Source: Octopus sinensis | Taxonomy: Eukaryota | DNA length: 64,000 bases | NCBI RefSeq assembly: GCF_006345805.1 | Contig: NC_043004.1 | Location: 65,720,001 to 65,784,000, forward strand | Direction: 5' to 3' | Shown: piece by piece, positions 38,006 through 38,394 of the stretch | How positions within the stretch are numbered: the stretch's first letter is position 1 | Layout of the letters: each line of letters begins with the position of its first letter | The notes under the pieces: model-generated | What the model saw: only the letters and a program-made list of their open reading frames with translations | Database searches by the model: none | Told to the model about the DNA's origin: nothing | Made by a program: the position numbers and the translations under genes

Positions 38006-38394
38006 TAATAGAAATATTAAAATTACTAAGTCTCTATAAAAGAGATTACGGCATCGTTTACTGGAAATTAATTGTTATCGCCATATTAATATGGCATTCT
38101 TATAGATATAAGAATAATCGCTGCCGCTGGTCAGCTCCATGAGGCCACCGCCTTAAGATAGCTATTGATACACGATCTGTATCCATTATAGCCTTCGAAC
38201 AAGGGAGGTCAGCCGCTTCACACTGCCAGTCCGACAGCTACAGACGCGTTTCGGGGTATTGCCCCTTGTCAATGTAGCGCAGTCAGACCCCGCAGGTGTC
38301 GCCACTGACGTCTCTGTTCGAAGGTTTCTATTTACCTAGTTTCAGTGGAATACGTCCACTTGTTTTCAATAATAGAAATATTAAAATTACTAAG
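38006..38394 (-). mobile_element. 364-bp terminally redundant hammerhead monomer (retrozyme-like)
   Basis: taatagaaatattaaaattactaag repeated at 38006-38030 and 38370-38394. Confidence 0.8.
38237..38278 (-). ncRNA. 42-nt minimal hammerhead with U3-A8 core
   Basis: gcuaca-UUGACAA-gggg-caaua-cccc-GAAA-cgcg-UC-uguagc; stems I and II perfect, stem III palindromic. Confidence 0.85.

Follow-up and report, generated by a model that had tools for sequence, protein, structure and literature searches.

A U3–A8 hammerhead retrozyme family in the genome of Octopus sinensis and its probable mobilisation by Penelope-like elements

The question raised by this locus is whether a hammerhead ribozyme motif in which both members of the tertiary 3–8 base pair are altered is a decayed canonical ribozyme or the normal state of a mobile family, and, if the latter, what might move it. 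The window (the whole 64,000-nucleotide stretch of O. sinensis contig NC_043004.1 analysed here, positions 65,720,001–65,784,000 of GCF_006345805.1) is repeat-rich, microsatellite-laden, non-coding DNA of ~35% GC, and the assembly that we searched is 2.72 Gb in size. Our preferred reading, to which we give a probability of about 0.75, is that the window element is a 5'-truncated retrozyme copy of 1.07 units, likely moved by the reverse transcriptase (RT)–endonuclease of a Penelope-like element (PLE), with a hammerhead whose predicted cleavage would probably take place in a dimer.

The window copy and its hammerhead

The 42-nt motif reported in the first-pass annotation is present on the minus strand and the 364-bp spacing of the repeats around it is also correct (Table 1). 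Helix II is formed by GGGG/CCCC (4 bp) closed by a CAAUA loop and is followed by GAAA, CGCG and UC (with the GAA providing G12 A13 A14), and the sequence contains the elements expected of a type I hammerhead, namely U4 G5 A6 N7, A9, G12 A13 A14, A15.1–U16.1 and H17. Watson-Crick pairing of positions 3 and 8 is kept here as U3–A8, and literal C3–G8 is absent from the family. The stems had been described as perfect, which is true of helices I and II but not of helix III, where the palindrome ACGCGU can form at most 1 bp within one molecule and 6 bp between two. Rfam hammerhead models had no match among the top rows for the window or in the 364-bp unit; a C3–G8 sister copy was likewise missed, and so the miss is not caused by U3–A8.

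The direct repeats, given earlier as 25 bp and as the boundaries of the element, are in fact exact over 26 bp (38005–38030 and 38369–38394) and represent the overlap of a partial tandem, i.e. the last 26 bases of the preceding unit. In other copies of the family this stretch of preceding unit varies from 26 to at least 364 bases, and the partial-tandem anatomy across copies rules out the 26-bp repeat as a target-site duplication or LTR. No target-site duplication was seen at the window copy or at the fetched family loci, and no ORF with RT and GIY-YIG endonuclease is found in the unit or joined to it. The window unit differs from the majority sequence of its own subfamily at three positions (38354, 38191 and 38054), none of which are inside the hammerhead. 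The optional 'tail' of family copies is 60 bases long (38065 to 38005 here), and the adjoining (AT)n microsatellite is likely to have been the insertion target of the window copy. With 1.07 units, this copy holds one hammerhead only and is therefore a product rather than a source of circles.

Elsewhere in the window, translations inspected by eye suggest broken Helitron-like helicase reading frames (20776–22900), and a Tc1/mariner-like transposase fragment was also recognised by eye (55564–56010, minus strand). A tRNA-Ala(UGC) gene or tRNA-derived repeat head is located at 29742–29813 (plus strand), and a SINE-like repeat lies between microsatellites beside the retrozyme (37610–37910, plus strand), with similar pieces in the flanks of many loci. 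A two-copy 184-bp tandem repeat (58494–58863) is common in the flanks of other loci too.

Table 1. Coordinates of the retrozyme features in the window and of two PLE open frames elsewhere in the genome.
Feature	Position	Strand	Remark
Type I hammerhead motif	38237..38278	-	helix I, core, helix II, helix III palindrome, GUC triplet
Helix I 5' arm	38278-38273	-	6 bp
Core UUGACAA	38272-38266	-	U3 U4 G5 A6 C7 A8 A9
Swapped core pair	38267..38272	-	U3 = 38272, A8 = 38267
Helix III palindrome ACGCGU	38244..38249	-	
Helix I 3' arm	38242-38237	-	
Predicted cleavage site	38242..38243	-	3' of C17 (38243), standard hammerhead numbering
Full 364-bp retrozyme unit	38005..38368	-	non-coding
Last 26 bases of preceding tandem unit	38369..38394	-	5'-truncated insertion end
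Long predicted rod with hammerhead at tip	38188..38326	-	ends approximate, from fold
Alternative fixed 3' end of family copies	38065	-	unit position ~304
(AT)n microsatellite adjoining 3' end	37975..38004	.	
Intact-looking PLE open frame	L111:1937-4486	+	850 aa
Intact-looking PLE open frame	L112:2288-4720	+	811 aa

The family, its fold and the 3–8 pair

A DNA similarity search with the unit gave 2249 candidates, of which 40 were scored and the best 30 loci fetched (96–100% identity). The exact 30-letter U3–A8 core has 190 matches genome-wide (0 for the reversed control), whereas the C3–G8 core has none, whether stem II is kept identical or relaxed. When positions 3 and 8 were left open, all 45 hammerheads found were U3–A8 (45/45, from 29/30 fetched loci), and with positions 3, 7 and 8 open there were 286 matches, with 98 U3–A8, one C3–A8 and one U3–G8 among the 100 listed (hand count). 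U3 and A8 are thus fixed together across copies, and the outcome named beforehand as fatal to the proposal, a C3–G8 consensus with two decay mutations in this copy, was looked for and failed, as U3–A8 is the family state. The expectation that a CUGANGA search would miss this family also holds, there being no C3–G8 core on this stem II. The U3–A8 variant is not new, however, and had already been published (Perreault et al. 2011, PMC3088659; Cervera and de la Peña 2014, PMC4209133).

The family is young and consists of a ~360-nt non-coding retrozyme in dispersed tandem units. Four close subfamilies show 97.5–98.6% mean identity to their own majority sequences and are 81–94% identical to one another, with more distant members of the superfamily at 68–77%; family 2 (357-bp period) and family 3 (354–360 bp) share ~51% and ~46% identity, respectively, and the three related families hold a period of 354–365 bp. 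Copies are scattered over many chromosomes with unrelated flanks. Like other animal non-LTR retrozymes these are short, non-coding, dispersed tandem units with a hammerhead in each, in a simple tandem with no region between the repeats and a GC content under about 45–50%. The commonest changes among copies are C-to-T and G-to-A. A-to-I editing was considered as the driver of the core change and rejected, as the excess of A>G over T>C variants (35 vs 24) is too weak.

The unit is strongly folded. In circular form the window unit has a predicted energy of -124.5 kcal/mol compared with -86.3 +/- 4.5 for 60 shuffles (z -8.5), and three other subfamilies gave z values of -6.0 to -6.9; a good fold is predicted for the antisense strand too (z -7.7 for the window unit, -4.9 to -7.7 across subfamilies). 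The monomer fold is branched, a rod within it ends in the hammerhead, and the energy model gives helices I and II pair probabilities of 0.89–1.0 in the circular monomer. Helix I resumes beyond an internal loop, in which one unpaired U is invariant; this U in loop 1 and a conserved A in loop 2 resemble the known hammerhead loop–loop contact. In a covariation set of 13 hand-picked representatives, 96.9% of cells are paired, compared with 31–48% in slid controls, and 13/20 pairs are changed on both sides (as these sequences are related, the figures are not probabilities). The 3–8 pair is U–A in 11 of the 13 and C–G in two. Between subfamilies any of the four bases can stand at position 7, whereas the remaining core positions do not vary. 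It had been proposed that the motif is under selection for catalysis, and the covariation, together with a natural switch back to C3–G8 in a sister family, supports selection on the fold.

Helix III is less straightforward. Its palindrome is ACGCGU in the window copy and is spelled ACAUGU, ACUAGU, ACCGGU, ACGU or ACUAUAGU in relatives, and the spelling is non-palindromic in 17/98 matches. According to the energy model the core mis-pairs, an intramolecular helix III carries a penalty of 7.1 kcal/mol, and in a tandem dimer the probability of an inter-unit helix III is 0.0, though the palindrome is conserved. We think it fairly probable that the hammerheads of source copies are competent for catalysis.

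A genome-wide count with two matched patterns gave 3565 U3–A8 and 226 C3–G8 matches (7 and 5 for the controls). Both forms occur in family 3, where the 100 listed of 230 matches include 66 U3–A8, 31 C3–G8, three U3–G8 and no C3–A8 (hand count). We constructed a tree with 42 rows (two of 44 were dropped as chimeric) from which positions 3 and 8 had been removed and which was rooted on family 2. The C3–G8 copies form a single clade with support of 97, joined by a U3–A8 sister with support of 100, and nested among U3–A8 branches. This nesting recurs in two further analyses and does not rely on one node, although the root is a long branch, and it follows that C3–G8 is a derived return rather than the starting state.

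A separate small subfamily has U3–G8 in 6/16 matches, at five places on five chromosomes, and the four copies that we fetched have unrelated flanks. These branch apart from the C3–G8 clade, elsewhere in the trees, and this does not support U3–G8 copies as its ancestors; we note that this subfamily (L251, L253, L257 and L259) has an 8-base helix III palindrome and is found on several chromosomes. A strict demand for Watson-Crick pairing between positions 3 and 8 is weakened by the spread of U3–G8 to five loci. As U3–A8, C3–G8 and U3–G8 have all been amplified and C3–A8 has not been seen amplified, pairing is kept with wobble tolerated. Separately, a number of loci (L187, L190, L191, L194, L199 and L203–L210) hold diverse, old, single C3–G8 hammerhead-like motifs with palindromic helix III.

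Insertion scars, Penelope-like elements and a hybrid

Copies read in the ribozyme sense have two fixed 3' ends located 60 nt apart and 5' starts anywhere; an inverted arm is frequent, and the 3' ends abut (AT)n or (ATT)n. We surveyed these scars at 79 loci (a non-random set chosen for near-full units or intact cores, a few of which overlap) and found both orientations in 47/79 and a tandem junction in 58/79. Of the 137 3' ends, 45 were at unit positions 296–312 and 64 at 359–364 (109/137 in the two intervals), with at least 8 A/T bases directly after 87/137. The copies therefore combine the partial tandems, inverted 5' arms, two 3' ends and microsatellite targets by which Penelope mobilisation can be recognised, and these match the scars described for PLEs by Craig et al. 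(2021, PMC8557442). An anole PLE has two measured reverse-transcription starts producing a two-start 'tail' (Frangieh et al. 2024, PMC11167929), and the two retrozyme 3' ends match these. Head-to-tail arrays of five to seven units also exist, and a unit is preceded either by a further unit or by DNA unrelated to it. At two loci (L119:3890-5600 and L045) a retrozyme unit is split around unit position 77 by an element with a gag-like ORF. We consider the family to be very probably a PLE-driven non-autonomous retroelement.

An abundant autonomous PLE (20491 candidates) was reached via an endonuclease fragment beside one retrozyme copy. Its open frames of 804–850 aa have an RVT_1 domain above the cut-off, a weak GIY-YIG domain below it and a CX4CX2C linker which points to the Neptune/Nematis type (PMC8557442). 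Intact copies are 98–99.4% identical, and the element has two 3' ends ~40 nt apart ahead of (AT)n. Its repeat carries a U3–A8 hammerhead in 35/35 motif matches (single C3–A8 and U3–G8 copies occur elsewhere). No homology was found between the 364-bp unit and the PLE terminal repeat beyond the hammerhead core in the two PLE families compared. It should be noted that the repeat hammerhead of the abundant PLE is tiny with a helix II of 2 bp, and that in a second, older Neptune-like PLE family (L141–L154) the 3' motif reads by eye as another U3–A8 hammerhead. At a further locus a retrozyme copy and (AT)n are directly followed by a C-terminal GIY-YIG fragment from another type of PLE, which we take to be Hydra-like (L037:1760-2479, plus strand); the RT fragment and different endonuclease fragment beside this copy were considered as a parent PLE but are merely neighbours. 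A retrozyme inverted pair also sits back-to-back with a PLE 3' fragment via a few A/T (L050/L081, G000:C3:73150082-73151100), which may be one joint insertion or two nested ones.

One locus joins the two kinds of element directly. At L062 (G000:C3:172279728-172280325), 66 nt identical to the subfamily of the window copy end at C17, and the next 138 nt share 97% identity with one PLE subfamily (139 matches) starting from the PLE's own C17+1, with no bases gained or lost. An inverted insertion has this junction in each of its arms, which terminate at the two 3' ends used by the PLE; the insertion has been duplicated locally at 485 bp. A search for this type of junction gave four matches which were all at this single locus, and the reciprocal hybrid had no matches. 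Judged from its sequence, L062 shows PLE machinery to have copied retrozyme sequence at least once. The junction fits the ligation of, or a jump between, two RNAs that would have been cleaved, but as four letters are shared at the junction, a homology-guided template switch without cleavage fits equally.

Cleavage should leave a trace if cut linear RNA was the usual template, as 5' ends would then pile up at C17+1. Nine distinct 5' truncations were found there (two of which are explained by helix I homology), compared with 5, 14 and 3 at three control positions having the same letter context but slightly different subfamily sets (an earlier, context-biased control with two matches was set aside), and there is no enrichment at the predicted cut site; uncut multimers and circles both fit this result. 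Breaks just after C17 with a next base other than T were examined as possible hybrids, and all seven are point changes (7/7). Contigs from presumed RNA runs of four organisms span parts of the unit and have neither ends nor joints at the predicted cut site, though contigs cannot reveal ends, strand or circles.

These observations can be accommodated in a scheme in which tandem source copies would be transcribed and the PLE protein would nick (AT)n DNA, with reverse transcription initiated at one or other of two positions inside an RNA that is multimeric or circular. The helix III palindrome may allow two hammerheads to pair and cut after GUC, and the released monomers could then be ligated into circles. 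We regard the circular RNA intermediate as tentative, with somewhat less than an even chance of being correct.

Competing explanations and known systems

The rival closest to our reading accepts mobilisation by PLEs and regards the hammerhead as a folded structure or a weak, protein-dependent relic, so that the template is an uncut multimer and no circle is formed. It draws on the lack of 5'-end enrichment at the predicted cut site, on an active fold that is not the predicted ground state, on the spread of the U3–G8 subfamily and on related ribozymes having low or absent in vitro activity in the systems described (PMC4209133, PMC11167929, bioRxiv 10.64898/2026.07.22.740005). With a circular template, however, 5' ends would be missing from the cut site just the same, and the unpaired core bases are invariant across families which are only 42–57% identical while position 7 is free. 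The double switch to C3–G8 has moreover been amplified (31 among 100 listed, with no C3–A8 among those), and we judge the relic explanation distinctly unlikely. The 364-bp unit might instead be the pLTR of an undiscovered autonomous PLE and the copies its 5'-truncated ends. The scars are the same as those of PLE ends, homology to pLTRs is reported for frog retrozymes (Li, Clavereau and Pollet 2026, bioRxiv 10.64898/2026.07.22.740005), and the copies examined are part of all, those among the matches listed. What lies upstream is nonetheless another unit or unrelated DNA, including in arrays of five to seven units, and the 354–365-bp period is held in three related families; PLE protein matches near the family loci are scattered fragments at no fixed distance and are absent from 30/30 family-2 loci, which makes a pLTR origin improbable by a wide margin.

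Least likely of all, to the point where we give it hardly any weight, is that the window copy is a canonical hammerhead decayed by two mutations or that the family spreads as DNA through satellite-type recombination. Tandem arrays do exist, and C-to-T and G-to-A are the commonest changes seen among copies, but the count of 190 exact U3–A8 cores against none with C3–G8 on this stem II refutes the decay part, and spread as DNA is at odds with copies that are scattered over many chromosomes, share no flanking sequence and combine fixed 3' ends with variable 5' ends. Beyond our preferred reading of a PLE-moved, 5'-truncated copy lies a more ambitious one, in which retrozymes with circular RNAs, as a clade of long standing, parasitise Neptune-type PLEs without shared sequence. 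Both partners would cut themselves in the germ line by U3–A8 hammerheads, L062 would preserve cut RNAs that had been ligated, or bridged by a jump, at the cleavage site, and the base pair would have walked among U–A, U–G and back to C–G in a genome where U3–A8 predominates. This is speculative and in our view rather unlikely as a whole.

The core swap and the class of element are both already known. Perreault et al. (2011, PMC3088659) described U3–A8 as natural covariation and cited earlier in vitro activity, and ~1300 minimal U3–A8 hammerheads have been reported for the Schistosoma mansoni PLE Cercyon (Cervera and de la Peña 2014, PMC4209133). Core swap, tie to PLEs and predicted action as dimers are common to Cercyon and the octopus family; as described in that paper, Cercyon hammerheads are minimal motifs, mostly single, with a long helix II and short helix I, whereas the helices of the window family are of canonical size and belong to a unit that is tandem and non-coding. 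In contrast to the published U3–A8 cases, here U3–A8, U3–G8 and C3–G8 can be placed on one family tree. Coral, mussel and axolotl have tandem type I retrozymes of ~350 nt that give rise to circles (Cervera and de la Peña 2020, PMC7229834), and it has been argued that animal retrozymes are non-autonomous PLE derivatives (bioRxiv 10.64898/2026.07.22.740005; one of nine frog retrozyme dimers cleaved in vitro in the same work). The octopus family resembles animal non-LTR retrozymes as published in having non-coding tandem units of ~350–365 bp, <45% GC and a highly structured monomer, one type I hammerhead per unit with a 6-bp helix I, 4-bp helix II and palindromic helix III, and a proposed dependence on PLEs; it differs in the U3–A8 core, the two fixed 3' ends, the inverted arms and the absence of a target-site duplication, and in that no homology to a PLE repeat was found. 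Compared with the EN+ Neptune/Nematis PLEs (PMC8557442, PMC11167929), the partial tandems, inverted 5'-truncated arms, optional 3' tail from two starts, (TA)n targets and repeat hammerhead are shared, whereas the retrozyme is without an ORF, has a tail of 60 bp rather than the 30–40 bp reported and is GC-richer and strongly folded. Hammerhead cleavage was dispensable for insertion by the anole PLE in vitro (PMC11167929), and PLE hammerheads acting as dimers are described in a review (PMC6765202). The plant LTR retrozyme, with type III hammerheads in LTRs and a 4-bp target duplication, is not matched, as here the hammerhead is type I and there is no duplication. Our literature searches, which covered sources other than subscription papers and supplements, found no report of this family, of a U3–A8 retrozyme or of a retrozyme–PLE hybrid.

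What is added here is the genome-wide dominance of U3–A8, a traced reversal of the 3–8 pair and a hybrid that names a candidate driver. Surveys based on CUGANGA would catch only ~6% of the motifs returned by the two patterns (226/3791), and the genome provides natural sister ribozymes which are ~90% identical and differ at the 3–8 pair. The enzyme that moves animal retrozymes and the cutting of hammerheads in vivo are open points in the literature cited here (PMC4209133, PMC11167929, bioRxiv 10.64898/2026.07.22.740005). For the former, the octopus genome itself offers a named candidate, a young, intact PLE whose insertions bear matching scars and which is joined in register to the retrozyme in one hybrid, and the published in vitro PLE assay makes the question of the mover directly testable.
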